A stretch of DNA of 36,539 nucleotides from Eubacteriales bacterium (GTDB taxonomy: Bacteria > Bacillota > Clostridia > Oscillospirales > CAG-272): positions 1 to 36,539 of the forward strand of contig JAZQWK010000363.1 in assembly GCA_045632325.1 (NCBI GenBank). Reading direction: 5' to 3'. This document shows, piece by piece, positions 1 through 36,539 of the stretch. Within the stretch, counting starts at the first letter, position 1. The number at the start of each line of letters is the position of its first letter. The position numbers were made by a program, and so were the translations under genes. The notes beneath the pieces were generated by a model that had not been told where the DNA came from, made no database searches, and worked only from the letters and a program-made list of their open reading frames with translations.

Positions 1-141
1 CTTTCGTAATACTGCCCTGCTTTATAAAAACGCCTCCGAGATAGCATATCCTGTCGTGTGCAATTCCCATCAGCAACTTGTCCCGGTCATCCAACCGGGA
101 TGTCTTTTTCTCTACAAAAGACCAGAATCCTGTACTCGCAA
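1..141. repeat. Terminal direct repeat, copy 1 (identical to 36399-36539)
   Basis: Read base by base: ctttcgtaatactgccctgc...cctgtactcgcaa occurs at both window ends. Confidence 0.97.
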
Positions 142-13956: not shown

Positions 13957-14876
13957 ACGTACTCTATCCTCCCATTGCTTTTTCTGAACCCTATAATGCG
14001 GGTCTGCATCGTACACCTGCAGTTATACACCGTTTCCGGCTCTGCCCCGGGATCTCCGGGATATTCCAATTCGTTTCCGTGTCCGTCTATGAACATCTCG
14101 TCAATGCCCACCTCTTGACCGTACATATCTACGTGCCAGTCTCGCGTTCTTCCATCACTCGAGGAATACCATATTTTCGTCAGCACGACTCCCTCGCTGT
14201 CGAGTTCTTTATAGCTGTCCAGTCTGCCCTTGTTTTCTGCGGACGTTACCATCGTGCGGGCGTTTCGGATCGCTGATGCCTCGTTCCGGTTAACGATGGG
14301 ATAAAGCCTGTCGGCAATCTTGTCCATGCTTTCGCCCTGTATGATCCCTTGTAAAACGGAACTATTCATCTGCTTCCTGTTCCACGCGATGTCTTTGTAC
14401 TTATTCAGCGTTTTCAGCGGTACAAGGGTCGGGTCTTGCGTCATCATGTAGCGGACAGTGCTTTCATTGACCAGATTAAATGCGATCCCGGAAATAAGAG
14501 AATCCTCTACAGCATTGTATGACAGCGCGTAAATGCCCGGTAGCTGTCCGTTAACATATGCTACGGCGGTTTGGTTCACGTCTGCCAGTCTTTCCGCTGT
14601 TGCCTCTGTTATGCGCTTATAATGCGCATCTTTCAATGTCAATGCGGCTTTCTGTCTGCCGAGTTCCGCGCCAACTTCCCGCGCTTCTCTCATGTACCCG
14701 GCATTTTTATACATCCAGTAATCCTGCTGTAACGCGGCGACAAGTTCCTTTTGCGATTTGACATACGTCGTCCATTCCTTCGTAACGTTGTCCATCGCTT
14801 CTTGATAAATTGCGGATATGTTTTCTTCCATCTCCGCAAGCTGTTTTTCTGCCGCTTTCCGTGCTTGATCTATCAT
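13953..14876 (-). CDS. Head morphogenesis protein (Mu F / SPP1 gp7 family)
   Basis: 307 aa from ATG 14876 (ATGA overlap). C-terminal RTRDWHVDMYGQ...PGDPGAEPETVYNCRC motif. Confidence 0.88.
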   Translation of the reverse strand: MIDQARKAAEKQLAEMEENISAIYQEAMDNVTKEWTTYVKSQKELVAALQQDYWMYKNAGYMREAREVGAELGRQKAALTLKDAHYKRITEATAERLADVNQTAVAYVNGQLPGIYALSYNAVEDSLISGIAFNLVNESTVRYMMTQDPTLVPLKTLNKYKDIAWNRKQMNSSVLQGIIQGESMDKIADRLYPIVNRNEASAIRNARTMVTSAENKGRLDSYKELDSEGVVLTKIWYSSSDGRTRDWHVDMYGQEVGIDEMFIDGHGNELEYPGDPGAEPETVYNCRCTMQTRIIGFRKSNGRIEYV

Positions 14877-15520
14877 GCCGACCACAAATCATTGGACGAC
14901 GCCTGTCCGAAAACTTTAATGATATACGTTCCGTCAGACCCTCCTGCCGCCGTGCTGAGATCCGCACCGTAAATTTTGCACTCGACAGAGGTGTTTGCGG
15001 CTTTTGTTGACCCGGTCATGTTGGTAGAGCCGCCAGCCGTTCCGATCTGTGTACCGGCATCGTGAGCGGAATTGTTCGCCGGAACAAGTTTCACTTTCCA
15101 TGCTTTCAACGCCAAGTCGGACTGCCATGTAAATGTGCAGATGTTCTTCCCGGTCTGCGTTGAGATCACGTTCACGTCCGGACCTGTGACGGTAATGCTC
15201 GGAATCGCAGTTGACAGAGTGATCGTTGCGGAGCTTGCACTGGACTCGTTGTATACAGAGTCGCGTACTTTGATATAAACGGTTTTGCTACCGTCTCCAG
15301 AAGTAAGGGTGACTGATTTTGTCGATGCAAACGTTTCCCAACTTGCCGCCGCCTCGCTCGCTACGCCGTTGATTCCCCAAATCTTCATCGCCGCGGCATC
15401 GGCAGAAGCGATCGAAAGCGTGACCGATGTCGATGTGGTAACGCTCGCCCCGGAGTTTATCGCAAATGACGATATAGTCGGCGCAAGCGTATCAAGTGTT
15501 AAGTTAAAATAACTTGCCAT
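14873..15520 (-). CDS. Ig-like-domain structural protein, candidate capsid decoration/fibre protein
   Basis: 215 aa. The N-terminus LDTLAPTISSFAINSGASVTTSTSVTLSI...GDGSKTVYIKVRDSVYNES is a bacterial Ig-like pattern. The C-terminal ~100 aa is paralogous to the C-terminus of ORF 16084-17574. Confidence 0.6.
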   Translation of the reverse strand: MASYFNLTLDTLAPTISSFAINSGASVTTSTSVTLSIASADAAAMKIWGINGVASEAAASWETFASTKSVTLTSGDGSKTVYIKVRDSVYNESSASSATITLSTAIPSITVTGPDVNVISTQTGKNICTFTWQSDLALKAWKVKLVPANNSAHDAGTQIGTAGGSTNMTGSTKAANTSVECKIYGADLSTAAGGSDGTYIIKVFGQASSNDLWSA

Positions 15521-15865: not shown

Positions 15866-16118
15866 ACCATACTACCTCCGTACTTTTTACTATATCCATT
15901 TGCAGATTAGTCTGCGTCTGAATATCTTTCGAGATCGAGGACGCTGTGTCTATCTCTGCCTCGACAGCATTCGCTTCTTGCACAAACGCATCGAATGATC
16001 TGCTTCTCTGGATGCTTATATCGAACTCGTCTGTGAACTCCGGCGGCGTTCCATTCCAGAGTGTCAGATAAAACCATGCTCTGCTACTCACTCCACACCC
16101 CTCCAATAGATTGACCAT
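15855..16118 (-). CDS. Hypothetical small protein (start uncertain: ATG 16118 or GTG 16091)
   Basis: Open frame bridging the two neighbours with overlaps at both ends. GGAGGGG lies upstream of GTG 16091. Confidence 0.4.
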   Translation of the reverse strand: MVNLLEGCGVSSRAWFYLTLWNGTPPEFTDEFDISIQRSRSFDAFVQEANAVEAEIDTASSISKDIQTQTNLQMDIVKSTEVVWYVG

Positions 16119-17574
16119 ATACCTTGATCGTATACTCGCCGTCTCCGTTTGTTAATTCCTCATCGTCAACCGTCACCGTGCCATTTGCTCCTGCGGCAAG
16201 CGTTGTCCCGCTTTCTACCAGTAGCCCAACCCCCCGCGCCGGAGTCGTTCCCGATTTTGTTGCTCTCGCTTCCCATTGCTGTAATGCAAGATCCGATGTG
16301 AAAGTACACACGCACTGATCGTATCCAGTCTCATCGCTGATGATTGTTCTGGACGGAGCCCCAACAGTAATCACGGGCGGGTCTCCGCTTGTACTTGCAG
16401 TAAATACGATTGTATGGTCAGCCGTAATGTTGGACACGGTATAGATATATATGTATCCAGAAACAGAATATGTGACTGTTAAAGTAGCCCCGTACACATA
16501 AATATATCTGTGCGTGGACGATGCGTTGTTTGTCATTGTGATATACAATCTCGGACTGGCAAGATCACTACTCGACCATGTTCCCATCGTCAGATTATAT
16601 GTTGCTTTGGCAACGTCCGTTGCAGATGTTACCCAGTTGTTTGCAGAACCTTTTGCCGTTGTATTGGCATACATTTGAAACGATGATGTAACACCAGATG
16701 ACGAACCGTTTCTGCTGAACTGTAACGTGGCAGAACAAGCAACGCTTTGCAATGTCGCTCCAGTTGGTAGCGTAATAGCCCCAAAATTGAAATATATCGT
16801 TCCAGTCGTGCCGCCCGCCAGATCCAGTGTCGCATATGTGCTGTTATCTGCACCGTGATACGCATTGGATATATTGGTCAGCGTAAAACTTGTATTATTA
16901 TTACTTGACGGATAAACCGCAAGGCTGTCTGATGATACTCTTGTTACCTGCGATGTAACATCTACGTTGTTATCCGTAACTGTTGGCGTAGATGAGTAAT
17001 TGTACCCTCTGGCTGTGAAGTTTTCCCCCTCAAGTACTGTTGTCGTTCCACTCGGCTCAGCACCGGATACGCTGACATCGTGGTAAACTGGTACTGTATA
17101 GGTGACATCTATCTCTGCACCGTAAATGTAAATGTAGGAAGTTGTGCTTCTGTTGCTTCTTCGGCAGTTTATCCTAATACCGAAGTTGTCTCTATACCCT
17201 TTAAGCGTGTCCCATGCAATCGTAGTATTCGTAAATGTCTTTGCCGTGGCACTTGTCGTTAATGCCGTTGTACTACCTGCGGCAGATACTTGTGTTGTAT
17301 CATTATATCCATAAATTGTACTTGTATTGCCGCCGCTGTGGGACGCTTTTATCTTGATCTCAATACTACTGACAATGGCATCATCCGGTATCGATGAAAA
17401 ATTAAACCCTCGTAAATATACATACCGTGAAGTTGTCGCCGCATTATTGTTGGTAATAGTAGCATATGTCGTACTATCAGTATTGGTAAATGCAGAACTT
17501 TCATCGCTCACCGTTAAGTATGATGAGGCGGCATTGTATAATATACTCGGAATTAACCTCGCTGTCGTTGCCAT
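16084..17574 (-). CDS. Large S/T-rich structural protein with an internally duplicated beta-domain, inserted between portal and MuF
   Basis: 496 aa. Its ATG overlaps the portal stop (TAATG). The two domains end ...TSYIYIYGAEIDVTYTV and ...THRYIYVYGATLTVTYSV. Its C-terminal domain is shared with ORF 14873-15520. Confidence 0.65.
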   Translation of the reverse strand: MATTARLIPSILYNAASSYLTVSDESSAFTNTDSTTYATITNNNAATTSRYVYLRGFNFSSIPDDAIVSSIEIKIKASHSGGNTSTIYGYNDTTQVSAAGSTTALTTSATAKTFTNTTIAWDTLKGYRDNFGIRINCRRSNRSTTSYIYIYGAEIDVTYTVPVYHDVSVSGAEPSGTTTVLEGENFTARGYNYSSTPTVTDNNVDVTSQVTRVSSDSLAVYPSSNNNTSFTLTNISNAYHGADNSTYATLDLAGGTTGTIYFNFGAITLPTGATLQSVACSATLQFSRNGSSSGVTSSFQMYANTTAKGSANNWVTSATDVAKATYNLTMGTWSSSDLASPRLYITMTNNASSTHRYIYVYGATLTVTYSVSGYIYIYTVSNITADHTIVFTASTSGDPPVITVGAPSRTIISDETGYDQCVCTFTSDLALQQWEARATKSGTTPARGVGLLVESGTTLAAGANGTVTVDDEELTNGDGEYTIKVYGQSIGGVWSE

Positions 17575-18905: not shown

Positions 18906-20168
18906 TTAATTCCACAGCGGTGAATACTCACTTTTTACTTTGCCATATAACAGCCTTGCCAGTGATGCGACTGTATCCGGGCAGTCATCATGCGCCGCGT
19001 CTTCAAAATAATCGCATATCTGCTCTATAAATTCTTTGTCTGTGTCTGCTGTAAATATAGCATCTTTCCATATAGCTTTCAAGTAAGTAACAATTTTCAG
19101 GTATTTGTTCTGATGTTCCGTGTACGTGATCGCCTTGATCCCCATCTTGCGCAGGTCTTTCGCAACAAACCCCTTGTCCGCGTTGTCCTCTGTATAAAGT
19201 TTGCCGCACATAAACTTTTGATAGTCTGCCAATATGTCGGCATAGCACTCCTCAACGTGCTTTCTCCTGCACCGTCCGTGGATATAATACGCTGTATCGC
19301 ACTTCCTCATAACGCACCATGCGGTGTAGTCCTCGCCATAGAACGCGCTGTCAACGTGCATAATGCCTTGCCCTACTTTTGCCGGGTCTGCGCCGGTCTG
19401 CGGGTTTTCAAATATTACGTCCTCGCTTGCGATGTGCCGCAACTCATAGTTGCAAGCAAACAAAGACGGCAACATCGTCCCCTTTATCGCTTCCAATTCT
19501 TCCGGCGGTATGATCCCGGTCGAATAACAGTCATGCCGCTCCGCATCCGGCATAATCGAGAACGCATCCTCTTTATGCCACGGTGTACCTGTATTAAATA
19601 TCTTGCCGCCTTGATTCTTTACATTCTGGAGTTCCTGATAGATCGTGATTGTGTGGTCTCGTTCCGCTTTGCTTATCCTGTCCTTGACGTTGACAATATC
19701 ATCGGTGAATATACGGTCAAAGTGTTTGCCGGTAATTGAACCGCCAAGACCGATGCCGAGTAACTGCACCGTTCCTTTTTTGTCCGTGGTTAGGTTCGTT
19801 GCGATCTCTGTCGTGGACTGCGTGCTCAATTTAAGATTGACACCGTATATGCACTGCACAAAATACAGCGTGTGCGGATCGCTCAACAGCTTTTGCACCT
19901 GCTTGACCACTTCCTTTACGTCCGCGTCAGTCTTTCGCATGAACATCGTTCGCAGGTTCGGCAAAAGAATAATCTGGATAGCCAACGCCACTGACACGCA
20001 GGTCGTTTTGTATGATCCGCGGTGACTCTGTAGCGTGTGGTCTTTCGTTCCCTGTACCATTTCTTTTATCCACTCATTATGCAAAGAGGTCAGCTTTGTA
20101 AAGCCGACCATCTTCGCAAAATCAGCGGGTCTGTTTAATAAAAAGTCAACAGCCTCTCGCCGTGTCAT
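18906..20168 (-). CDS. terL: Terminase large subunit
   Basis: 420 aa. Contains a deviant Walker A (HRGSYKTT), a Walker B-like IFTDDIVN, GTPWHKEDAF, and nuclease-domain aspartates (VDSAFYGEDYTAW, AAHDDCPD). Confidence 0.9.
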   Translation of the reverse strand: MTRREAVDFLLNRPADFAKMVGFTKLTSLHNEWIKEMVQGTKDHTLQSHRGSYKTTCVSVALAIQIILLPNLRTMFMRKTDADVKEVVKQVQKLLSDPHTLYFVQCIYGVNLKLSTQSTTEIATNLTTDKKGTVQLLGIGLGGSITGKHFDRIFTDDIVNVKDRISKAERDHTITIYQELQNVKNQGGKIFNTGTPWHKEDAFSIMPDAERHDCYSTGIIPPEELEAIKGTMLPSLFACNYELRHIASEDVIFENPQTGADPAKVGQGIMHVDSAFYGEDYTAWCVMRKCDTAYYIHGRCRRKHVEECYADILADYQKFMCGKLYTEDNADKGFVAKDLRKMGIKAITYTEHQNKYLKIVTYLKAIWKDAIFTADTDKEFIEQICDYFEDAAHDDCPDTVASLARLLYGKVKSEYSPLWN

Positions 20169-21457
20169 TATACCCTCTTCCTGTCCGCGGTTTCATGCGT
20201 CCTTTTCTGTATCGTCACGTTTTCGTTGTATCTGTATATGATGTCATTATTTTCGTCCACTCCGTCAGGAATAAGCACCTGCTCAAATAATTTGTATGGA
20301 CTCTGCCCGCGCCGTGGCGCGTTCCATAAATACCGGAGATATTCCTTCATTGTCATCTTGTCAAACTTCGCCCTCTGTTCACAGGAATTGCAGTTAAATC
20401 CCTCAGCCGCTTTATATTCAAACTCAAGGAAGTACATATCACCCTCTATGTCATTCCATCGCACGCTACCCTCTTTTTTCGCGATCTGTAACGCCGCAGA
20501 GAAATGCCCCCGGCTGTATTCCCATTCCGGTGGCAAGGCGCAACAACACGCGTTGTTTGAACACTCCTTAAAATGCGCGTCAGAGACATAGAACCTCATC
20601 CCCAACTTGTCGCAAAGGTCTTTCATGTTGCGGACGTACTTTTCTTTTATTTTCCTGTTCAGTCGGAGATACCCCGATCCGTTTGAATACTTCCTGTAGA
20701 ACTCTACAATGTCGAAACCGCAACACTCGCTTATCGTTCTGTAGTGTTCCTTTGCTTGCTTTATAGAGCGCATTTCAAGGCAGAAGAACTCTGTCGTGAC
20801 CGCTGTCGCACCGGCGTCATGCGCCGCTGTAATAAGGTCGAGATACGTCTTGTCGGACACGCCTATAATGAACGGTCTCAGGCGAATCGTCGTGCCGCCT
20901 TTGCTCAACTCATTGTATTTCCGCATAGCCTCAAGCCTTTCCCGCGGAGAGGGTACGCCGACTTCGATCTTTTTCGCGTCCTTTTCGTCAAGCGTAATAA
21001 TGCTGAATTTCACGTTCCAGTTATCCGCGCCGCGGAACAGTTCAACGTATTTCGGGTCTGAGAACACCCATGCAGACTTTGTGCTGAAGCATATTGGGTA
21101 GTTTATTTCTTTCAAGTATTTAAGTACTTCGTATGTTATTCCGTATTTCCGCTCGAACTCGTCAAACTGATCTGACAGCCCGCCGTACTGGATGGGGCGT
21201 TTTGTCTTCAGATATTCGTAGAATTGCGACCGTTTTTCCCCGCTGAATATCGCTTTTATTTTCTCCGGGTTAATAGATTTGACATCTTTATGCAGGTAGG
21301 ATTCTTTTGCCGCTCCGATCCCGCGCTGATATTGAGAAAAGCAGTACACGCAACCAAATGAACAATTGCTGTATGTATCAAGCGTAACCGGCAGACTGCA
21401 ATCTGCAATTTCCCCTGTCCAACGTGGACTGCCATAGTTTTTCTTTATTTCTTCCAT
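20168..21457 (-). CDS. Radical SAM enzyme, SplB/COG1533-like (long form, 429 aa)
   Basis: CSFGCVYC at 21341-21364 (C32-x3-C36-x2-C39). Downstream motifs YGGLSDQF, ICFSTKSAW and the Cys-rich C-terminal extension CSNNACCCALPP. Its stop overlaps the TerL ATG (TAATG). Confidence 0.8.
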   Translation of the reverse strand: MEEIKKNYGSPRWTGEIADCSLPVTLDTYSNCSFGCVYCFSQYQRGIGAAKESYLHKDVKSINPEKIKAIFSGEKRSQFYEYLKTKRPIQYGGLSDQFDEFERKYGITYEVLKYLKEINYPICFSTKSAWVFSDPKYVELFRGADNWNVKFSIITLDEKDAKKIEVGVPSPRERLEAMRKYNELSKGGTTIRLRPFIIGVSDKTYLDLITAAHDAGATAVTTEFFCLEMRSIKQAKEHYRTISECCGFDIVEFYRKYSNGSGYLRLNRKIKEKYVRNMKDLCDKLGMRFYVSDAHFKECSNNACCCALPPEWEYSRGHFSAALQIAKKEGSVRWNDIEGDMYFLEFEYKAAEGFNCNSCEQRAKFDKMTMKEYLRYLWNAPRRGQSPYKLFEQVLIPDGVDENNDIIYRYNENVTIQKRTHETADRKRV

Positions 21458-22161
21458 AGTTTCAAAGCCCCGCCGTCATAGTGTTTGTTCGGAACGAAAA
21501 AGCTGTATTCTTTCGACATCCTTTTTATTGTTTTCTGAAGTTCTCCGTTCTCGTATCTTTCTTTGCACCCACCTGCGTTCGATGTGTTCTTTGGTTTCGC
21601 GCAAGAGAAGTCATTAAAGCGCAAAGTAGTACCGCCTTGCTTTATAATGCGGCAACACAACTCGTAATCGTCAACAACCTTATACGATGTGTTAAACCTC
21701 AGCGCGGAGTTCATTATTCCTATAAACGTCCCTTGCAAAAGAACATTTATATCTGTCTTGTATCTCGCTCCGCGGATTATAACGTTGCTGTTTGCCGCGA
21801 TTCCAAATACCTGCGCGTGTATTTTTCGCGCCTCGTCTTCCATGTATTTTACATTCGACAATGCCTCCGCTGTGTTGCGCTTGAATTTTCTCTCCGTCTC
21901 GTAGTATACATTTATTCCGTATACATCATCGTCCATAAGGATTACCGGCTGACCCACATATTTAAGGATCGTGTTTCTGTTCCCCGCCGCGCAATCTGCC
22001 TCTCCGTATATTATCTCAACGTCATGCAGTTTTTTGTATGCGTCCCTATCCTCGCGTGTTTGAACAGATATAACAATGTCGTGCTTGTCAATTCCGTTCT
22101 CTAATAGCATATGCGCCGTTTTGCATTGCGGTCTCTTGTATGACGGTATTCCGAATATCAT
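21445..22161 (-). CDS. GT-A-fold glycosyltransferase-like protein with DxD motif
   Basis: 238 aa. N-terminal IFGIPSYKRP, then GNRNTIL, then DDD at 21925-21933, and a later VVDDYELCCRI. Overlaps both neighbours (ATGA upstream, 13 nt downstream). Confidence 0.6.
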   Translation of the reverse strand: MIFGIPSYKRPQCKTAHMLLENGIDKHDIVISVQTREDRDAYKKLHDVEIIYGEADCAAGNRNTILKYVGQPVILMDDDVYGINVYYETERKFKRNTAEALSNVKYMEDEARKIHAQVFGIAANSNVIIRGARYKTDINVLLQGTFIGIMNSALRFNTSYKVVDDYELCCRIIKQGGTTLRFNDFSCAKPKNTSNAGGCKERYENGELQKTIKRMSKEYSFFVPNKHYDGGALKLWKK

Positions 22162-22736
22162 TCGCCGCCCCCCATAAGTTCGTCAAAGTCATAAACCACT
22201 TTCATGGAATCCGGCTCTACGCCAAGCCACTCGCACACCTGCATTTCCTTTTCCGGCGCGTATGTAATAATAACTCTCCTACGCAAAAGGAAGTCATCGG
22301 AATGGTCATCGTATTGTTTCATCAGGTCTTCATCGAACGGTTCAGGAATGTACGGATCGTCCTCCGGCTCAAACCCAAACTTGCTCAGGTCTATGTCGTT
22401 TATGGAATCAATTTCAAGGCTCAACAATTCAACGTCAAATCCGGTATTCATTGTCAGCTTGTTATGCACGAGCGTATAGGCTTTTCTCTCCTCATCCGTC
22501 AGCCCATCCAAACGTATCACCGGCACGGTCTCTATTTCTGGCATTTCCATTACCGCCAACAGCCGTCCGTGTCCCTCAATGATCTCGTTATCGTGCCAGA
22601 TCGCAATCGGATCGTTAAAGCCGAACTCTTTTATGCTTTCCTTTATCTGCTTTACCTGTTCGGCTGTGTGAATCTTTGCGTTGTTGGCGTAGGGTTTTAG
22701 TTCTTCTTTGCTCAGGTATTCAATTTTCAGTTCCAT
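22158..22736 (-). CDS. ParB N-terminal (ParB/Srx-fold) domain protein with acidic C-terminal region
   Basis: 192 aa. LKPYANNAKIHTAEQVKQIKESIKEFGFNDPIAIWHDNEIIEGHGRLLA is the ParB-like nuclease-domain pattern. There is no HTH or methyltransferase domain after it. Confidence 0.8.
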   Translation of the reverse strand: MELKIEYLSKEELKPYANNAKIHTAEQVKQIKESIKEFGFNDPIAIWHDNEIIEGHGRLLAVMEMPEIETVPVIRLDGLTDEERKAYTLVHNKLTMNTGFDVELLSLEIDSINDIDLSKFGFEPEDDPYIPEPFDEDLMKQYDDHSDDFLLRRRVIITYAPEKEMQVCEWLGVEPDSMKVVYDFDELMGGGE

Positions 22737-23569
22737 GCAGTCCTCCTTAAATTACAGCAATCATCCGGGTTTTTGTTTACGTGTCTCTTCCAGTACTCAT
22801 ACGCCCTGCTCTCATCCTCGCATACGCTGATCTCTTTGAACTTCAGCTTGCTTATGTATTGAATCTTTTTCGACAGCGGCATATGCAAATATCCGTTCTG
22901 CTTTACGGTGTATTCAGAATAGTCTATGTCGAGCCATTTCCGTATCCATGAATTGACGCGCAAGAACTCGACAAGCACCTTGTCTATTCCCAAGGCGTTG
23001 TACGCCTCAAAATCGACATATTCTGGCATCAGCGGAGAAAGTCTTAACGAAACATCAAACCCGGCGTTCTGGAGCGTTCTGGCGGCTTGTACGCGATCCT
23101 GCGGCTTGCTCGCTTTCTCCATTCTGCGGCATATTTCCTCGTCCAGTGTCGTCACCGTTATCTGGATGTGTGCAAGGTCTTTGTCCATGATCTCGATGTA
23201 TTCCGGGTCTGCTATCATCGCGGATTTTGTCACAATCAAATACGGCACTTTACGCCGGTTCAGCAAACGGATCGTCTTGTATGTGTTGCGGTACAATCTC
23301 TCTACCGGCTGAAGACAATCCGTCATGCCGCCAAGCCTTACAACCTCGCCTCTTTTCACTTTGCGTATTGCCTTGCCGATGTCTGCGGTGCTTGCTACCG
23401 CCGGTCTTTGCGGATTCCATAATCCGCGGAAACTCAACAGGCTTTTTGCATAGCAATATGAACAGTCATGCTGACAGCCGCATCCGTACGTATCGATACG
23501 TGTCGGATAATGGCATTTCTCGCCCTCGTTGCCTTGTACGGTTTTGCCTACGCTCTTAAAGTCTTTCAT
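22727..23569 (-). CDS. Radical SAM enzyme, SplB/COG1533-like (short form, 280 aa)
   Basis: CQHDCSYC at 23453-23476 (C32-x3-C36-x2-C39). Motifs GGMTDCLQP, LIVTKSAMI and VSLRLSPLMP follow the spore-photoproduct-lyase-family layout. Its ATG directly abuts the TerS-like stop. Confidence 0.8.
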   Translation of the reverse strand: MKDFKSVGKTVQGNEGEKCHYPTRIDTYGCGCQHDCSYCYAKSLLSFRGLWNPQRPAVASTADIGKAIRKVKRGEVVRLGGMTDCLQPVERLYRNTYKTIRLLNRRKVPYLIVTKSAMIADPEYIEIMDKDLAHIQITVTTLDEEICRRMEKASKPQDRVQAARTLQNAGFDVSLRLSPLMPEYVDFEAYNALGIDKVLVEFLRVNSWIRKWLDIDYSEYTVKQNGYLHMPLSKKIQYISKLKFKEISVCEDESRAYEYWKRHVNKNPDDCCNLRRTAWN

Positions 23570-31451: not shown

Positions 31452-31486
31452 TACATTTTCCGAAAGTTTTTCAAAAAGTTTTTCAC

Positions 31487-31515
31487 AAAAAAAGAACCCC
31501 GCTTTCACGAGGCTC
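31487..31515 (-). terminator. Rho-independent terminator closing the cargo cluster
   Basis: Minus strand reads GAGCCUCG-UGAAAG-CGGGGUUC (8-bp stem with two G-U pairs) followed by U7 (31493-31487), 4 nt after the stop at 31520. Confidence 0.65.
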
Positions 31516-31519
31516 TTTT

Positions 31520-31825
31520 TTACATCTGCGCGATCCGTTCAAGCACCGCTTCATATTCTTTTGGATATAACGCTCTTACGACCTGCATATGTTCTTCCAG
31601 TAGTGACATCAGCCCTTGCACCGGCACACCACTTGCCGCCCGGCTGAAGTCCCCCAGATCATACTCCGGCACAGTGTCTACCATCGCGTGGGAAACGATA
31701 GGTATTCTATCGTCAGACATATGGTCAAACACAGTGTACAGCCACGACAGCCTTTGTATGTTGTTCCAGTTGGTATCCGCTTTTTCCAGTTCGGTTATCT
31801 CTTTTGCGATCTCGTCAACGCTCAT
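31520..31825 (-). CDS. Hypothetical 101-aa protein (cargo cluster, last gene)
   Basis: 11-nt overlap with the upstream gene; no family recognised. Confidence 0.55.
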   Translation of the reverse strand: MSVDEIAKEITELEKADTNWNNIQRLSWLYTVFDHMSDDRIPIVSHAMVDTVPEYDLGDFSRAASGVPVQGLMSLLEEHMQVVRALYPKEYEAVLERIAQM

Positions 31826-32336
31826 GCTGATCCTCTATCAAATAGTTGATGTCATAGTCTGCCGCTTTCTTCAAAAGCTGATACCCCTGCGCCTCTGCGA
31901 GTTCGTCATCGACTCTCCTCAACAAAGATTTGACATGCATAGCCGCCGCGCATTCGCCCATATTGCTGAGTTCGTTGACTGCCATCTCGTACAGGTCTTT
32001 CGTCTCCCGCTCCCATTCTACCCACGTTTCCAGACCGCTTTCGACCGCTCTTCTCTTCGTGGAAGTATCAACGTCCTGCCGGGTTGCGTTATACCATGCC
32101 GCCGGGATCACGCCCGGATTTTCAACTTCTTTTTCCTCGATCAGCCGGTTGCAATGGCATATGTAATACTTGCACAGGTTTCGCCAACTCCTCATCTCGT
32201 CCCAGAACTGGTTCTCGTGATGCTTCGCATACTTGTCCAGTCCCAGAAAACGATAGTAGTCAGCCAACTGCGAGTGCATCATTACGCCCTTAACCATATG
32301 TGCCGACATATCGCGGAACAGTTCTTCCTTTGTCAT
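31815..32336 (-). CDS. Ferritin-like four-helix-bundle protein (cargo cluster)
   Basis: 173 aa from ATG 32336 (TGGAGA upstream). MHSQLADYYRFLGLDKYAKHHENQFWDEMRSWRNLCKYY resembles ferritin helices A and B, but the E-x-x-H site reads E-M-R-S-W. Confidence 0.5.
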   Translation of the reverse strand: MTKEELFRDMSAHMVKGVMMHSQLADYYRFLGLDKYAKHHENQFWDEMRSWRNLCKYYICHCNRLIEEKEVENPGVIPAAWYNATRQDVDTSTKRRAVESGLETWVEWERETKDLYEMAVNELSNMGECAAAMHVKSLLRRVDDELAEAQGYQLLKKAADYDINYLIEDQHER

Positions 32337-32362
32337 GTTGTCTCCAATCCCGCTTATTGTGT

Positions 32363-32767
32363 TCACTCTTTGACTACTCGCACGGAAATGTTCTGCACCG
32401 TCCCCGCTCCTGCCAGTAACACGCAGGTAAGGTTGTCCGCGGAATCACAGCAACAGCCCTGCCGTATGGTCGCATTGATCGCAAGGTTGACCGGGTTCAG
32501 TGCTGTCGAGACGGACTCGTAAGCGATCGCTCCGGGTATCTGCACTCCGTTGTTGTAAAGTGCTACAGTAACAGCCCCCGCCGCTGTCGGTGCTACGGAT
32601 ACACTGACATCCGCTGTGTAGTATCCCTCGCCGTTCACCTCGATGCCGTTGCCGGACATCCTCAGGTTGCATCCAAACCGCCTCTGCGTGCTCCCCAGTG
32701 GTATGATCCCGTTGACAGCCACGGTCTGCGGTGACTGGTTCGCCGTTTGTATCAAACTCCTGCTCAT
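32363..32767 (-). CDS. BclA-C-terminal-domain-like (C1q/TNF-like jelly roll) protein with CCC motif (cargo cluster)
   Basis: 134 aa. GNGIEVNGEGYYTADVSVSV...VTVALYNNGVQIPGAIA...NISVRVVKE parallels the beta-strand pattern of the BclA CTD. Contains RQGCCCDS. Confidence 0.55.
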   Translation of the reverse strand: MSRSLIQTANQSPQTVAVNGIIPLGSTQRRFGCNLRMSGNGIEVNGEGYYTADVSVSVAPTAAGAVTVALYNNGVQIPGAIAYESVSTALNPVNLAINATIRQGCCCDSADNLTCVLLAGAGTVQNISVRVVKE

Positions 32768-32796
32768 AATTACCCCTTTCTGGGCTCTGCAAGCCC

Positions 32797-32825
32797 AATA
32801 TAAGCCTTATAAAGAGCGTAGGCAA
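32797..32825 (-). promoter_or_regulatory. Possible internal promoter of the cargo cluster
   Basis: Minus strand reads TTGCCT (32825-32820), 17-nt spacer, TATATT (32802-32797). It overlaps the 3' arm of the hairpin. Confidence 0.35.
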
Positions 32826-32843
32826 GGATTCCCCTGCCTACGC
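32806..32843 (-). terminator. Strong stem-loop, candidate terminator or attenuator inside the cargo cluster
   Basis: Minus strand reads GCGUAGGCAGGG-GAAU-CCUUGCCUACGC (12-bp stem with one G-U pair) at 32816-32843, followed by UCUUUAUAA. Confidence 0.5.
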
Positions 32844-32871
32844 ATAAAATCCTCGTCAAATTGGCGTATAA

Positions 32872-33531
32872 TTAAATGTTGTTCCCACAGCATCCGAAGA
32901 TAGGCGGGAACGGACCTGCGCCGTATGTCCAACTGTTCGGGAATCTCAGCATCCCGGACGTAGCCTGTGCAAGCTGAAGCTGAGACACCTGAGCCTGTAA
33001 GGACTCAATTTTATCCTGCGCGATCATATCCTTGACGGACTGGATCTGCGCTGTGAAGTTGGCATTCGTAGCCGCGTCACGCATCGCTCCGTCATAATTG
33101 GACTGCATAATCATCTGCTTTGTCTCACAGCAACAGCTGTTCTGGTTCGCAAGTGCCTGTGCCTGTCCTACGGCAATACCGCTGATGTCTCTCGCCAGTT
33201 CGTCATAGCGGTTCTGGATGATCCCCAGTGTATCGTGGAACGTCTGGTTGGTAGCCGCTACAGACTGAGCCGTTCCGGAATTGACCGCTGACAGGATCTC
33301 GCGCTCGTTGGCAAGGCTGTTCTGCGCGTCAAAGCCCCTCTGCACTTCGTTGCTCGTGGCAAGGTTCTCATAGCCGATGGCGTTGGCAAAATTATTGCCG
33401 CCCCAACCGCCGAACCCGCCGTTCGCCAGAATCAGCAGAGCAAAGATCCACATAAACGCGCCGCCGTCCCCCCACATATTATTGCCGTTCAGCAGGGCAA
33501 CATCAGAAGCGGAAAGTGTACCGTTGTCCAT
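32872..33531 (-). CDS. Gly-rich membrane-anchored coiled-coil protein with CCC and C-terminal GCCG motifs (cargo cluster)
   Basis: 219 aa with AAAGGAG RBS. GGAFMWIFALLILANGGFGGWGG is a TM segment. It has a long Q/A/N-rich helical region, NSCCCETKQ, and a C-terminal PPIFGCCGNNI. Confidence 0.6.
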   Translation of the reverse strand: MDNGTLSASDVALLNGNNMWGDGGAFMWIFALLILANGGFGGWGGNNFANAIGYENLATSNEVQRGFDAQNSLANEREILSAVNSGTAQSVAATNQTFHDTLGIIQNRYDELARDISGIAVGQAQALANQNSCCCETKQMIMQSNYDGAMRDAATNANFTAQIQSVKDMIAQDKIESLQAQVSQLQLAQATSGMLRFPNSWTYGAGPFPPIFGCCGNNI

Positions 33532-33577
33532 GTTGTTTCTCCTTTCTTTTGTATTTTATAAAACCGTGCGCACGATC

Positions 33578-33817
33578 TTATTTCAGCATATTCAAAACGT
33601 CTTCCGGGTTCACGCCTTTCTCCTGCGCCATTTTGTAAAACGCCGCTTTTGCGTCCCCGCCGTTCTGCTGTACATAATCCAATACCTGCTTTACTTGCGG
33701 ATTTCGCGCCGCCATCTGGTTTAACATCATCTGCGGGTTTCCCCTCATGGCGTGCATCATGTTTTTAATCGGCGTCAACCTGCTTTGGTTTAACGCTCCG
33801 AGCATTGGATTTGTCAT
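33578..33817 (-). CDS. Small helical protein with NPQ repeats (cargo cluster)
   Basis: 79 aa. GGAGGG RBS before ATG 33817. It overlaps the upstream gene by 53 nt. Confidence 0.5.
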   Translation of the reverse strand: MTNPMLGALNQSRLTPIKNMMHAMRGNPQMMLNQMAARNPQVKQVLDYVQQNGGDAKAAFYKMAQEKGVNPEDVLNMLK

Positions 33818-34142
33818 TCTTCATTCCCTCCGTGATCTTGACTATCGCGCCCTCTACCGCCGCCAGTCTTTTCTCGATGCTGTTAACGTCCACCGGCGGC
33901 GCGTCCTGATGAACCGTAATGTCATACGGTGTACTCGTAACTTTTCCCACGCCGTCAGAAACGCACATCCACACGATAGGCGCGGACGTGTCCATCACAA
34001 GAACGGAACTGTTCGGGGCAAGCTGAATCGTGTCCACGCTCGCCTTGCCGTTCACCTGTATGATCTGCTGTTGCGGGAGATAATTATTCGGCTGAAAATT
34101 CTGGCTGAAATTCTGGTTATAATAATTCGGATATGCGTACAT
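33765..34142 (-). CDS. Q/N/Y-rich N-terminus plus beta-domain protein (cargo cluster, first gene)
   Basis: 125 aa from ATG 34142 (AAGGGGG RBS). Starts MYAYPNYYNQNFSQNFQPNNYLPQQQ, then VNGKASVDTIQLAPNSSVLVMDTSAPIVW. Confidence 0.55.
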   Translation of the reverse strand: MYAYPNYYNQNFSQNFQPNNYLPQQQIIQVNGKASVDTIQLAPNSSVLVMDTSAPIVWMCVSDGVGKVTSTPYDITVHQDAPPVDVNSIEKRLAAVEGAIVKITEGMKNDKSNARSVKPKQVDAD

Positions 34143-34181
34143 AAAAAGCACCCCCTTGTGATTCTATTGAACCACAAGGGG
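34143..34181 (-). terminator. Rho-independent terminator-like hairpin whose 3' arm contains the RBS of the next gene
   Basis: Minus strand reads CCCCUUGUG (34181-34173), 12-nt loop, CACAAGGGG (34160-34152), then GUGCUUUUU AUG. Confidence 0.6.
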
Positions 34182-34213
34182 ATCGAGAGGAGAATAAAGA
34201 AACTATGAAAGAG

Positions 34214-34411
34214 TTACGAAAGAAGTCTGCAAAAAATCTTGTCTGCCTTGTAAACGATATTCTGCACCTGCCGGTCGGACAGGTCGAACATCTCAGCCAA
34301 CTCTGCGAACCGCTTTCCGTCTATGTACCGGGCTTTCAAAATATCCCGGTCGCGGTCGCTATGGATATGCTCATCGATCAATTCTCTGATCTGGCTGTTC
34401 GTGTATGTCAT
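34214..34411 (-). CDS. Sigma-70 region-4-like HTH protein (65 aa)
   Basis: RDRDILKARYIDGKRFAELAEMFDLSDRQVQNIVYKADKIF matches the region 4.2 / LuxR-like HTH pattern. Regions 2 and 3 are absent. Confidence 0.6.
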   Translation of the reverse strand: MTYTNSQIRELIDEHIHSDRDRDILKARYIDGKRFAELAEMFDLSDRQVQNIVYKADKIFCRLLS

Positions 34412-34435: not shown

Positions 34436-34729
34436 TTACCGTTCTTTTTCGTCCGGGTTCGCGTCCGTTTTCTCTGCACCACTATTCTCGCCATTTACTA
34501 TGCTCCCAACGCCGCCAATATAATTGGCAATGCCGTCTTTTCCGTCTACGGTGACTGTCTCTGTTGAATCTGATGTATAGTCATACTGCATCCACGCATA
34601 CAGCCAGATCGCATTACAGGCAAATATGACAGCGATTGCGACAATTAACGCGGCTATCAGTCTGCGGACTGTTCGTTCATGCTTGACCTGCGCGATCTCA
34701 TACGCAAGTAAAAGGTTCTTATCGTCCAT
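34436..34729 (-). CDS. Single-TM protein downstream of the endolysin
   Basis: 97 aa from ATG 34729 (GAGGTGA RBS). TM segment LIAALIVAIAVIFACNAIWLYAW. Confidence 0.55.
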   Translation of the reverse strand: MDDKNLLLAYEIAQVKHERTVRRLIAALIVAIAVIFACNAIWLYAWMQYDYTSDSTETVTVDGKDGIANYIGGVGSIVNGENSGAEKTDANPDEKER

Positions 34730-34731
34730 TG

Positions 34732-36078
34732 TCACCTCAGCATTTTATTGACTTCATTCTGCACTTCGGAATACCGCGATCCGAGGACGCGCTTGCGCAG
34801 TTCGCCGTTGCCGAACATCCCGGTGATAACGTCTTTCGCCAGTGCGGTTGCAGATGACCGGTAAATATGGTTTATCATCTCCTGCACTGCCTGATAACTT
34901 GCGCCAAGAGCCTTTACGCGCTCATCGCCGTTGCCGTACTTGCCTTCCTGCACCCGCGCCACAAGTTCAAGAACGGTTGTGCCCTCTTTCGGTTTGCTTT
35001 CATCGCTCAACACATTTCTATACATGATGCTCAAGTCAGCACGATGCGTTGAGCCGTTAATAGAGCCTTTACTGGTATACTGCCAGATGTCGCAATCATA
35101 CTCGGGTTTATCATGCACCCTGCCGTCATTCGCGCCCCACTTTGCTATCCACAAATAATCACAGTCGATTCCTTTCAGGTAGGACTTGTACCAAGAATCA
35201 TACGCATACACACCCGCTTTGTATCCGGCTTTTCTAATCAGCTTGACAAACAACTCCGCGTTTGCTTTTGAGTGAACCTGCGTTCCCGGCTGTTCGGTAT
35301 CGAAAAAGATCGCGCCGGGCTTATAGCCTTTTGCCAGTCTCAACGCATGATCTACTTCTCCGGCAGATTCGCCCTCGCTGTATGCGTAGCTGTAAATATA
35401 GAACGCGTAGGGGATGCCGTACCGTTCACAGCATTTTACGTTATACAGGAATAATTTGTCATCCTGATACTCTACGTTTTGACCATAACCGAGACGGATA
35501 ATTGCGCCATACACGGACGTTTTCGCTTTCTGCCAGTCTATCGTCCCATTATGTTCAGAAACGTCCACGACGATTTTTTGCTCTTCCTTTTTCGGTTCTG
35601 CCTTTTCTTCCTCATATTTCGGCATGGCGTACCCGCGGATATATCCCCACCCTACTGGGATAGTCCTGCGCCGGACTGCGTTATTGTAATTGCCCTCAAT
35701 GACTGTGATCTGTTTCCCATCGATTTTTTCCACGATCCCTATGTGATCGGAGTACCCATCATTGGGTTGCGTGCTGTCATCCCAGTTGTAGACAATTATC
35801 CAACCGGGTTTCGGAACGACAGTTCCGTCTTCCTGCCAGATACCGGCATCCTTAAAAATCTTAACATGGCGTTCAACACCGCACTCCGTGCCGCCTATCA
35901 GCGAAACCGCGTTATTTTTGATAAAGCACGCGCTCACGGTAGTATCGCACCACGCATCACTATATTTGACCGCGTAATTATGCGCAAGCGGTTTGTGGGC
36001 GTTGTATATATCGATTATTTTTCTCTTGTCCGTGCCTATCCAGTCGCGCATGGTCTGGATAATTTTCTCAGCGGTCAT
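34732..36078 (-). CDS. Endolysin: CHAP amidase/peptidase plus GH25 muramidase plus two Cpl-7 (CW_7) wall-binding repeats
   Basis: 448 aa from ATG 36078. CHAP Cys/His (DAWCDTTVSACF ... YSDHIGIVE). GH25 (VDVSEHNGTIDWQKAK...AIIRLGYG...FFDTE). Two repeats (GKYGNGDERVKALGASYQAVQ and GMFGNGELRKRVLGSRYSEVQ). Confidence 0.88.
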   Translation of the reverse strand: MTAEKIIQTMRDWIGTDKRKIIDIYNAHKPLAHNYAVKYSDAWCDTTVSACFIKNNAVSLIGGTECGVERHVKIFKDAGIWQEDGTVVPKPGWIIVYNWDDSTQPNDGYSDHIGIVEKIDGKQITVIEGNYNNAVRRRTIPVGWGYIRGYAMPKYEEEKAEPKKEEQKIVVDVSEHNGTIDWQKAKTSVYGAIIRLGYGQNVEYQDDKLFLYNVKCCERYGIPYAFYIYSYAYSEGESAGEVDHALRLAKGYKPGAIFFDTEQPGTQVHSKANAELFVKLIRKAGYKAGVYAYDSWYKSYLKGIDCDYLWIAKWGANDGRVHDKPEYDCDIWQYTSKGSINGSTHRADLSIMYRNVLSDESKPKEGTTVLELVARVQEGKYGNGDERVKALGASYQAVQEMINHIYRSSATALAKDVITGMFGNGELRKRVLGSRYSEVQNEVNKMLR

Positions 36079-36079
36079 A

Positions 36080-36283
36080 CTACGCCCCCTTGTTATAATT
36101 AACGGTACTGATCCCAATCAACGCGCCAAGGAATGTGTCGATCAGCGTCAGAGTTCCGACGATCTCCTCGCCGTAAGGGAATCCCCATATCTGCGCCAGA
36201 CCAAAGTACAGCGCGCCGACAGCCGGAATAAATATCAACGCGATCCATTTCAGTATATCATACGTTTTATCTTTCAGCTTCAT
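36080..36283 (-). CDS. Holin (phage_holin_1 / phiLC3-type pattern)
   Basis: 67 aa, two TM segments. ILKWIALIFIPAVGALYFGLAQIWGFPYGEEIVGTLTLIDTFLGALIGIS. Located directly upstream of the endolysin. Confidence 0.8.
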   Translation of the reverse strand: MKLKDKTYDILKWIALIFIPAVGALYFGLAQIWGFPYGEEIVGTLTLIDTFLGALIGISTVNYNKGA

Positions 36284-36539
36284 GCCTTGTCTCCTATCGG
36301 CAGTTTTCCCACCTCTTCCATGATCTTCTTCGCCGTTCCATTGCCGCCAAGTTTCCTGTACGGCTCGTATAAGTAGTCATGCAGGTTTTCATATTCATCT
36401 TTCGTAATACTGCCCTGCTTTATAAAAACGCCTCCGAGATAGCATATCCTGTCGTGTGCAATTCCCATCAGCAACTTGTCCCGGTCATCCAACCGGGATG
36501 TCTTTTTCTCTACAAAAGACCAGAATCCTGTACTCGCAA
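36280..36539 (-). CDS. 3' part of the wrap-around membrane-anchored protein (truncated by the window end; true ATG is at position 181 of the circular map)
   Basis: The frame is open to the window edge. The track's 36492 start is a TTG codon. Overlaps the holin ATG (ATGA). Confidence 0.7.
   Translation of the reverse strand, partial: ASTGFWSFVEKKTSRLDDRDKLLMGIAHDRICYLGGVFIKQGSITKDEYENLHDYLYEPYRKLGGNGTAKKIMEEVGKLPIGDKA
36399..36539. repeat. Terminal direct repeat, copy 2 (identical to 1-141)
   Basis: Exact match to bases 1-141. It lies inside a coding frame that continues across the junction. Confidence 0.97.

Follow-up and report, generated by a model that had tools for sequence, protein, structure and literature searches.

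Morons are accessory units located at the lysis or attachment-site end of temperate phages. Small oligomeric beta-sandwich proteins and proteins with a transmembrane (TM) segment plus a coiled coil are encoded beside the holin and endolysin genes of Firmicutes phages, as in XepA/XhlA of PBSX and gp22 to gp23.1 of SPP1. In TNF ligands and viral fibers, an anchor at the N-terminus leads into a long trimeric stalk, which is capped at the C-terminus by a jelly-roll knob. We analyzed a cluster of six genes (A–F, positions 31,520 to 34,142, minus strand) in a DNA stretch of 36,539 nucleotides deposited under a Eubacteriales bacterium (GTDB lineage Bacteria; Bacillota; Clostridia; Oscillospirales; CAG-272; GCA_045632325.1, contig JAZQWK010000363.1). 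The whole stretch is referred to below as the window. The cluster was classed among the accessory (moron-type) cassettes at the lysis end of phage genomes. Tentatively, we propose that it encodes a self-contained, late-expressed envelope complex, in which a tethered coiled-coil stalk (protein C) is clasped to a C1q-like knob (protein D).

Searches of profile libraries and the literature turned up no described system equivalent to the complete cassette. Pfam, NCBIfam, PHROGs, and PADLOC gave nothing informative for A–F, and PADLOC-DB also gave nothing for the neighboring genes sig65 and tm99. Literature searches on the cassette components, on BclA_C and phages, on ferritin-like proteins and prophages, and on ELLD returned nothing relevant. 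A preliminary description of this DNA, made from the sequence, had also been unable to match the gene set to any known system. A CotJ-type operon, GerQ, YabP, T7SS/WXG, and sulfhydryl oxidase were considered as candidates and dropped, as they had no profile support in Pfam or NCBIfam. The stand-alone BclA_C/C1q-like protein D is new, and the ferritin fold of E has already been seen in phages.

Each of the six genes has many homologues in other phage contigs, so A–F are real genes and not chance open reading frames (ORFs). All six ORFs, with the motifs attributed to them in the preliminary description, were present on the minus strand. A hidden Markov model (HMM) census was made of 75 non-redundant related loci with enough flanking sequence. 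A was found in 70/75 loci, B in 68/75, D in 51/75, and F in 12/75. In the tblastn search, which covered 82 loci, C was detected in all 82 and B in 71, followed by A (53 loci), E (31), and D (24). The linkage is therefore strong, and the suggestion that the genes might occur independently, with no conserved linkage, was refuted. The idea of a six-gene unit held in part. The genes form a linked cassette, but its unit is the core A-B-C, usually with D, plus a variable ferritin slot with F, and there is no fixed six-gene set. The slot after D is occupied by E, by a half-ferritin, by DUF7841, or by cluster 33, which are non-homologous. No natural fusions between cassette components were found. The defining set comprises a regulator, the overlapping A and B genes, a Cys-tailed putative stalk, a swappable Cys-bearing putative knob, and the ferritin slot.

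The comparison of the window with more than 100 other loci showed that the cassette was the only shared part. On its downstream side, it is followed in some loci by a convergent tyrosine integrase gene and in other loci by an SNF2 helicase gene; the holin and endolysin genes are located upstream of it in most loci and downstream in about 8. These differing flanks, together with the lack of anything else common to the window and the related loci, indicate that the cassette is mobile. C has relatives in 92 IMG/VR contigs, most of them from the rumen, and in 29 contigs of genomes or metagenome-assembled genomes (MAGs), including Ruminococcus flavefaciens FD-1; the host assignments of the MAG contigs are unreliable. 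Protein searches of INPHARED with C, D, and A returned only unannotated human-fecal contigs. Homologues of A, C, and E contained in-frame TGA codons in L041, L042, L044, L047–L050, L053, L065, and L071, and in-frame TAG codons in L031, L034, L035, and L038. Because read-through of these codons sharply raises the ORF coverage, the cassette is also present in stop-codon-recoded phages.

C (32872..33531, minus strand, 219 aa) is the anchor gene of the cassette. The C family contains at least 8,000 sequence clusters at 90% identity, and no Pfam family or name was attached to any of the 120 relatives listed. Besides an uncharacterized PHROG, C had no profile or solved-structure match. It is far more conserved (50–90% identity) than the neighboring genes. 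Near its N-terminus, C has a Gly-flanked, weakly hydrophobic segment (residues 24–42), the only hydrophobic segment among A–F. The preliminary description had called this a TM segment. The Gly-flanked hydrophobic stretch is indeed there, but it is only marginally TM-like, with a KD19 maximum of 1.56 vs. 2.64 for the neighboring tm99. Two long helices (64–131 and 139–192) follow, interrupted at an invariant CCC (133–135). They were taken from the AlphaFold2 (AF2) model of C, which is unreliable (pLDDT 45) and was used only for its secondary structure. The protein ends in a Pro/aromatic tail and a terminal Cys cluster, GCCG. No signal peptide and no lipobox were found in A, B, D, E, or F.

D (32363..32767, minus strand, 134 aa) is annotated as a stand-alone C1q/TNF-like (BclA_C, PF18573) jelly-roll domain. 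Residues 8–91 aligned to Pfam BclA_C with E = 6.5e-8 and 32.9 bits, which is below the gathering cut-off of 38. A family profile built from 20 relatives matched BclA (2z5w) in the PDB with E = 4.8e-5, followed by cerebellin and collagen X NC1, which are of the C1q type. These sequence comparisons bear out the BclA-C/C1q-like assignment already made for the 134-aa protein, and D has a C1q/TNF-like fold. The D family has 2,165 database members, and PF18573 was annotated on about one-third of the close relatives listed. D carries a near-invariant Cys cluster (CCC, 105–107). Collagen-like GXX repeats were absent from D and its relatives, and D consists of the domain only, without the N-terminal exosporium-targeting region of BclA.

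The strongest link between C and D is their co-variation. D or another small Cys-rich partner was found in 62/75 loci of the HMM census, with proteins of clusters 14 and 40 replacing D in 11 loci. These two clusters were tried as remote D homologues, and hhalign was negative. When C had at least two Cys in its last 16 residues, a Cys-bearing partner gene was present in 67/72 loci. When C had fewer tail Cys (T/A/G-rich tails), a partner gene was present in 3/18 loci (Fisher p = 2e-10). Two of the five loci with a Cys tail and no partner have D further downstream. Clustering of C at 70% identity gave 39 groups, of which 30 were purely "both", 5 were purely "neither", and 4 were mixed or had one feature only. 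The Cys-rich tail of C and the partner gene have thus been shown to be gained and lost together. We infer that the C tail and D work together via their cysteines, for which this co-variation is the best evidence.

E (31815..32336, minus strand) is 173 aa long from a conserved ATG; the mechanical ORF from the GTG at 32366 would encode 183 aa. The AF2 model of E (pLDDT 95, pTM 0.88) has helices at 3–30, 34–62, 91–125, 129–158, and 163–169, giving a four-helix bundle with a long BC loop and a short fifth helix. All 50 PDB matches listed by Foldseek for this model were ferritins or bacterioferritins (TM-scores 0.72–0.87, 8–16% identity), and the best viral matches in BFVD were phage ferritin/Dps-like proteins. 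Judged by its model, E has the ferritin fold and is a divergent member. The canonical di-iron ligands (E/ExxH/E/ExxH) are not kept, and neither helix B nor helix D carries an ExxH. Conservation is seen at H13, H21, H40, E41, E47, E109, D143, and E145, with His and Glu lining the bundle. With the canonical ligands replaced by conserved His/Glu elsewhere, the metal site of E is probably non-canonical. The ferritin-like bundle and the degenerate di-iron site noticed from the sequence agree with these results. The BFVD matches of E also included "prohead protease" proteins (333–763 aa) of uncultured Caudovirales with a Dps/ferritin-like domain. This domain hints at a ferritin-like cargo brought into capsids, reminiscent by analogy of encapsulins.

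The half-ferritin (100 aa) has an invariant E14 and E47xxH50, and its profile matched ferritins in the PDB at E = 1.1e-5. The half-ferritin and cluster 33 were also tried as remote homologues of E; hhalign was negative for them, and the half-ferritin is linked to the ferritins by its PDB profile search instead. In the census of the ferritin slot, E was found in 31/75 loci, the half-ferritin in 29/75, and any one of E, the half-ferritin, or cluster 33 in 59/75. Cluster 33 (4 loci) was counted there as ferritin-like without support, so a ferritin-like gene is present in at least about 55/75 loci. F (31520..31825, minus strand, 101 aa) is an acidic helical protein, and the first 11 nt of its gene overlap the end of E. 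In related loci, E or the half-ferritin is followed by F or by the related cluster 41. The slot is often preceded by the small protein c7, which is absent from the window. A pair of c7 and an E homologue (33% identity), with no A–D, was found right after the tail genes in the cultured lytic Clostridium phages CS266P1-4 (L112 is CS266P4, OP172778.1, 6715–7522).

A (33765..34142, minus strand) is 125 aa long from its ATG, and a longer GTG ORF begins at 34151. Its N-terminus is Y/N/Q-rich. A conserved, beta-rich domain comes next (about 55 aa, VNG...PNSS...D...DG.G), then a short helix with the pattern LE..RI..LE, and finally a tail of low complexity. At 50% identity, the A family comprises 555 representatives, and no known relatives of A were found. 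In three loci (L102, L104, and L105), the A domain is placed behind the Pfam ELLD endolysin-like N-terminal domain. These fusion proteins are 356–398 aa long (L102, 6497–7693; L104, 6551–7690; L105, 6642–7712), with a linker that is first acidic and then Q/M/G/P-rich. L102 also encodes a separate downstream 681-aa protein resembling a GH25 muramidase, as judged by eye. The ELLD-A fusion may therefore not be the sole lysin of this phage.

B (33578..33817, minus strand, 79 aa) is a small helical protein with two NPQ motifs. Its start lies inside the 3′-end of A (33765–33817), with an overlap of 53 nt in the window and a median of 65 nt. In 79/80 loci, B is read in the +1 frame with respect to A, and its Shine-Dalgarno sequence GGAGG is encoded by the conserved Leu-Glu (LE) motif of A. 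A and B are tightly coupled genes, and their overlap is unusually conserved. The fixed +1 overlap prompted the idea of a programmed A-B frameshift, which is needless given the own start codon and strong Shine-Dalgarno sequence of B. Sequence and profile searches of the PDB with A, B, C, and E gave nothing significant, and a match of B to "Gogy" (7bqq) was judged meaningless.

The first 141 bases of the window (1–141) recur exactly at 36399–36539 as a terminal direct overlap. This exact overlap indicates that the contig is circular and contains the full genome, about 36.4 kb in size. No DNA similarity to catalogued phages was found. All genes in the window run in a single direction. The early genes, including Erf, NinB, and a replisome organizer, start at a 12/12 sigma-70 promoter (31451–31422). 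They are followed by the terminase, portal, head, and tail genes and then, across the junction, by the lysis genes and the six cassette genes. Directly before the cassette are a Dp-1-type holin, a CHAP+GH25+CW_7 endolysin, tm99, and sig65. No integrase was found in the window genome, and no lysogeny-related genes were seen among the window genes that were annotated. A–F form one transcription series with the holin and endolysin and are the last genes ahead of a strong terminator. The cassette in this phage is the tail end of the late transcript and not a lysogenic-conversion locus. Its position downstream of the lysis genes is as the preliminary description had placed it.

The gene sig65 (34214..34411, minus strand) encodes a 65-aa sigma-70 region-4/Mor-like helix-turn-helix protein. 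It matched Sigma70_r4 (PF04545) above threshold (E = 1.4e-5, 25.0 bits, cutoff 24.1) and PF08281 just under threshold (25.4 bits, threshold 25.7), and the match to Mor was weak. By these matches, sig65 has region 4 only and is not a complete sigma factor. Relatives of sig65 are located directly upstream of A in 25/75 loci by HMM, and in more by eye, and sig65 is probably a regulator that travels with the cassette. In the window phage, sig65 is co-transcribed with the lysis genes. If sig65 activates the cassette, expression would therefore be very late.

The hairpin upstream of A (34150..34183, minus strand) has a 15-bp stem, followed by GCUUUUU and the ATG of A. The region 34136–34200 had a dG of −26.3 and a z of −6.1 vs. 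shuffled sequence. The Shine-Dalgarno sequence of A (AAGGGGG) is located in the 3′ arm of this hairpin, and U5 and the ATG come next. The hairpin can be read as a terminator, a translational gate, or both. In 28/80 related loci, vs. 3.3 in shuffles, a terminator-like hairpin was located no more than 150 nt upstream of A, and 4 relatives repeat the layout of the window, with the Shine-Dalgarno sequence inside the hairpin, then a T-run, and then the ATG of A. At the other end, the intrinsic terminator of late transcription (31487..31515, minus strand) has an A-tract, a 15-bp stem with G-U pairs, and U7; the region 31478–31525 had a dG of −19.2 and a z of −5.8 vs. shuffled sequence. Both bounding hairpins of the preliminary description are thus real and far more stable than shuffled sequence. 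Phased A-tracts and the early promoter come after this terminator, which in the circular genome just marks where the late series ends and the early promoter follows. The region held 9 terminator-like patterns vs. 8.5 expected, which is the chance level; the bounding hairpins therefore stand out by stem length and stability only. A third hairpin, between C and D (32816..32843, minus strand), has a 12-bp stem and a weak U tail (dG −24, z −4.2), and a weak promoter-like match overlaps it. It is a possible attenuator dividing A-B-C from D-E-F.

Several other observations were made on the control regions. An own promoter for A was considered and could not be shown. Sites resembling a −10 element were present in 59% of the regions upstream of A vs. 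27–48% upstream of internal genes, which is a weak enrichment, and extended −10 elements were confined to one lineage. At 31455–31495 (minus strand), GAAAAACTTT-like units recur about every 11 bp as phased direct repeats or A-tracts ahead of the perfect early promoter. Three to five such phased repeats were also found upstream of A in L002, L004, L010, L039, L046, L091, and L092, and none were found in shuffles. The Rfam search of the region gave one sub-threshold chance match and nothing else.

In the proposed envelope complex, C would oligomerize, probably as a trimer, to form a coiled-coil stalk, and its Gly-flanked N-terminal segment would tether this stalk to the cytoplasmic membrane. The Cys clusters at the end of C and on a trimer of D may be joined through shared metal ions. 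Metal ions are the probable link in view of the reducing habitat, and disulfides would be possible in an oxidizing milieu. The outcome would be a split "stalk plus knob" fiber made of two polypeptides, with a design like that of a TNF ligand, BclA, or a viral fiber. A and B, coupled in translation, may direct the complex to the cell envelope or help to assemble it there. Together with F, the ferritin-like protein may handle or buffer iron or another metal for the Cys clusters. Because the genes are the last in the late transcript of an integrase-less phage, the complex is expected to be made at the end of infection. Its site of action would most likely be the envelope of the dying or lysed cell. 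Candidate roles are a superinfection block, a block of wasteful progeny re-adsorption to debris, and adhesion. The membrane-anchored exclusion or adhesion complex suggested in the preliminary description is thereby retained as the most plausible reading, at a tentative level and still in inferential form.

A bolder version would see in the cassette a portable split TNF/C1q fiber carried by thousands of rumen and gut phages, with a cysteine-metal clasp, a dedicated ferritin loading or protecting this clasp, sig65-type activation at the end of infection, and a role as a virion-independent organelle for exclusion, anti-readsorption, or adhesion. We regard this full version as rather unlikely.

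Several points weigh against the envelope complex. The low-charge, Q/N/S/T/A/G-rich composition of A–D is that of the virion proteins of the phage and fits a virion fiber equally. The membrane placement of C is a prediction only, as its hydrophobic segment is marginal and its AF2 model has a pLDDT of 45. D has no export signal, so a knob on the outer face would require holin lesions or lysis. Trimerization and the Cys clasp are deduced from co-occurrence only, and the co-variation of the C tail and the partner gene, although real, comprises few independent events. The fusion of A to an endolysin-like domain is rare, and A stands alone in all 150 best representatives of its family. An autonomous cassette promoter could not be demonstrated, and the −10 enrichment upstream of A is weak. 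The ferritin part can exist without A–D and may thus have an unrelated function.

The first alternative is a virion accessory fiber. The C shaft and the D knob would form a side fiber, a whisker, or a needle-like adhesin, with A and B as adaptors or assembly factors, and the hydrophobic N-terminus of C would be buried in the virion or contact the membrane during infection. Viral fibers are commonly built as a jelly-roll knob on a coiled-coil shaft. The charged fraction (0.10–0.18) and the QNSTAG fraction (0.42–0.54) of A–D are like those of structural proteins and unlike those of early proteins, E, and F; the composition of E, F, and sig65 is that of ordinary cytoplasmic proteins. A virion part would also account for the missing signal peptides of A–D, for the location of the cassette at the tail-fiber/lysis junction in the same orientation as the late genes, and for the several loci in which it comes directly after very large tail-type genes. 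The knob position is swappable (D, cluster 14, cluster 40, or none), like receptor-binding modules. However, the cassette is passed between phages that otherwise have no genes in common with the window phage, and a part docking on one virion should be less portable. An intrinsic terminator often lies ahead of it, and in some loci it is isolated between genes of the opposite strand or located beside an integrase. The conservation of C above its neighbors is also unusual for host-recognition fibers. We consider a virion fiber unlikely.

An accessory lysis or release module is a further alternative. Membrane-tethered C would act with the holin and endolysin in a manner like XhlA or an i-spanin, A would supply a wall-binding domain, and D and the other soluble proteins would reach the wall via holin lesions. 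The cassette nearly always adjoins the holin and endolysin genes, on either side, and forms one transcription series with them in the window phage. The ELLD-A fusions in three loci also favor a lysis role, and the layout of C (hydrophobic N-terminus, two helices, and Cys) resembles the known layout of an i-spanin. As no lipobox or signal peptide is found in the cassette proteins, an o-spanin equivalent appears to be missing. The likely hosts are monoderm Clostridia, as judged from the Gram-positive-type lysis genes and the relative in R. flavefaciens, and would therefore have no outer membrane to fuse. Between the cassette and the lysis genes there is often a terminator, some loci have the cassette apart from any lysis gene, and neither a ferritin nor a C1q-like knob has an obvious role in lysis. 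We consider a lysis module improbable.

The lack of any joint function was also weighed. The post-lysis region would then be a hot spot that collects unrelated genes, with A-B-C(-D) as one unit and E-F as an independent iron or oxidative-stress pair. The c7-E pair without A–D in the Clostridium phages, the non-homologous proteins that fill the slot after D, the hairpin and weak promoter-like site that part C from D-E-F, and the ferritin/Dps-like genes of many unrelated phages are all consistent with such a hot spot. Yet a ferritin-like gene follows C in at least about 55/75 loci despite the unrelated backbones. Two ferritin types, E and the half-ferritin, occupy the same slot, which argues for selection on a function next to C, and the co-variation of the C tail and D indicates that at least C and D are functionally tied. 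An absence of joint function is partly true for E-F and has a low probability for the cassette as a whole.

Remodeling of the spore layer or exosporium, which the preliminary description had put forward and in which BclA-C-like, Cys-rich, and ferritin-like proteins would join or cross-link the spore layers of the host, is very improbable: D is homologous to the BclA C-terminal domain, signal peptides are absent as expected of assembly in the mother-cell cytoplasm, and Cys-rich and ferritin-superfamily proteins occur in Clostridial spore coats, but Pfam and NCBIfam gave no match of A–F to a coat or exosporium family (CotJ, CotY/ExsY, CdeC/CdeM), D lacks the collagen repeats and N-terminal region of BclA, the carriers include R. 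flavefaciens FD-1, which we take to be a non-spore-former, and TGA/TAG-recoded phages, and the genes here are part of a late lytic transcript in a genome in which no integrase was detected.

Other genes of the window were also noted. The tm99 gene (34436–34735, minus strand) encodes a single-pass membrane protein of 99 aa with the motif PY.VHE..M.R.ER...RLW. It recurs as cluster 28 in L001, L016, L020, L024, L043, and L084, and tm99-type proteins sit between differing endolysin families and a sig65-like gene. This protein could regulate lysis or be an additional member of the cassette. The head region encodes proteins of 215 and 496 aa (14873–15520 and 16084–17574, minus strand) with the most extreme low-charge, Q/N/S/T/A/G-rich composition of the genome, which matches that of C and D; the 496-aa protein matched an uncharacterized PHROG only. 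Upstream of the terminase, 20168–23569 (minus strand) encodes two proteins matching phrog_13321, one of which also weakly matched the "DNA repair photolyase" PHROG family, a match to beta-glucosyl-HMC-alpha-glucosyltransferase, and a ParB-like nuclease/methyltransferase-type protein. These matches suggest a DNA hypermodification module. A 70-aa ORF is located at 36280–36492, and the longer members of its family (108–116 aa) carry an N-terminal TM segment. In view of these longer relatives, the ORF may be under-called or may run across the junction.

The fixed gene order over unrelated backbones and three genetic codes indicates that carrying the cassette brings a strong and general selective advantage in phage-host systems of the gut and rumen. 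The core protein C belongs to a very large, nameless family that is more conserved than the phage genes around it. If the proposed complex is real, its stalk, knob, and clasp would be a new architecture for a phage envelope device and a new use of the C1q/TNF-like and ferritin folds, and a function would be assigned to a large block of viral "dark matter". The prophage copy in R. flavefaciens FD-1 and the phages CS266P1-4, which carry the ferritin part, offer experimental handles.

The cassette can be compared with known systems at several levels. It resembles morons in lying downstream of the lysis genes, beside a convergent integrase in temperate relatives, in moving between unrelated backbones, and in having a 3′ terminator and often a 5′ terminator (28/80 loci). 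It differs from them in comprising four to seven genes in a fixed order instead of one or two, in being extremely widespread and conserved, and in occurring also in integrase-less phages such as that of the window, where it forms the last part of the late transcript. Compared with XepA/XhlA of PBSX and gp22-gp23.1 of SPP1, no sequence similarity was detected, and the sizes, Cys clusters, and ferritin partner differ. C shares with the two-component spanins (Rz/Rz1) a hydrophobic N-terminus, two hinged helices, conserved Cys, a Cys-bearing partner, and a place near the holin and endolysin. Unlike Rz/Rz1, the cassette has no lipoprotein partner and no homology to them, and its presumed hosts are monoderm. 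E has the complete fold of ferritins and bacterioferritins, including the long BC loop and the fifth helix, and its half-size relatives keep an E...ExxH half-site. It departs from the ferritins in its non-canonical ligand pattern and in being fixed in a slot beside the Cys-rich C-D pair.

D matches the profile of the BclA C-terminal domain/C1q-TNF family (PF18573) and is domain-sized at about 134 aa. D is unlike BclA in lacking the collagen-like stalk, the exosporium-targeting N-terminus, and the glycosylation region. It carries instead a conserved Cys cluster that BclA does not have, and a separate stalk-like protein is encoded adjacent to it, in a phage. By analogy, the N-terminal anchor, stalk, and jelly-roll knob proposed here would resemble those of TNF ligands, the adenovirus fiber, reovirus sigma-1, and the tail-needle knob of Sf6. 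In contrast to these, C and D are separate polypeptides that are apparently joined by their Cys clusters, the anchor is marginal, and C has no sequence homology to any of them.

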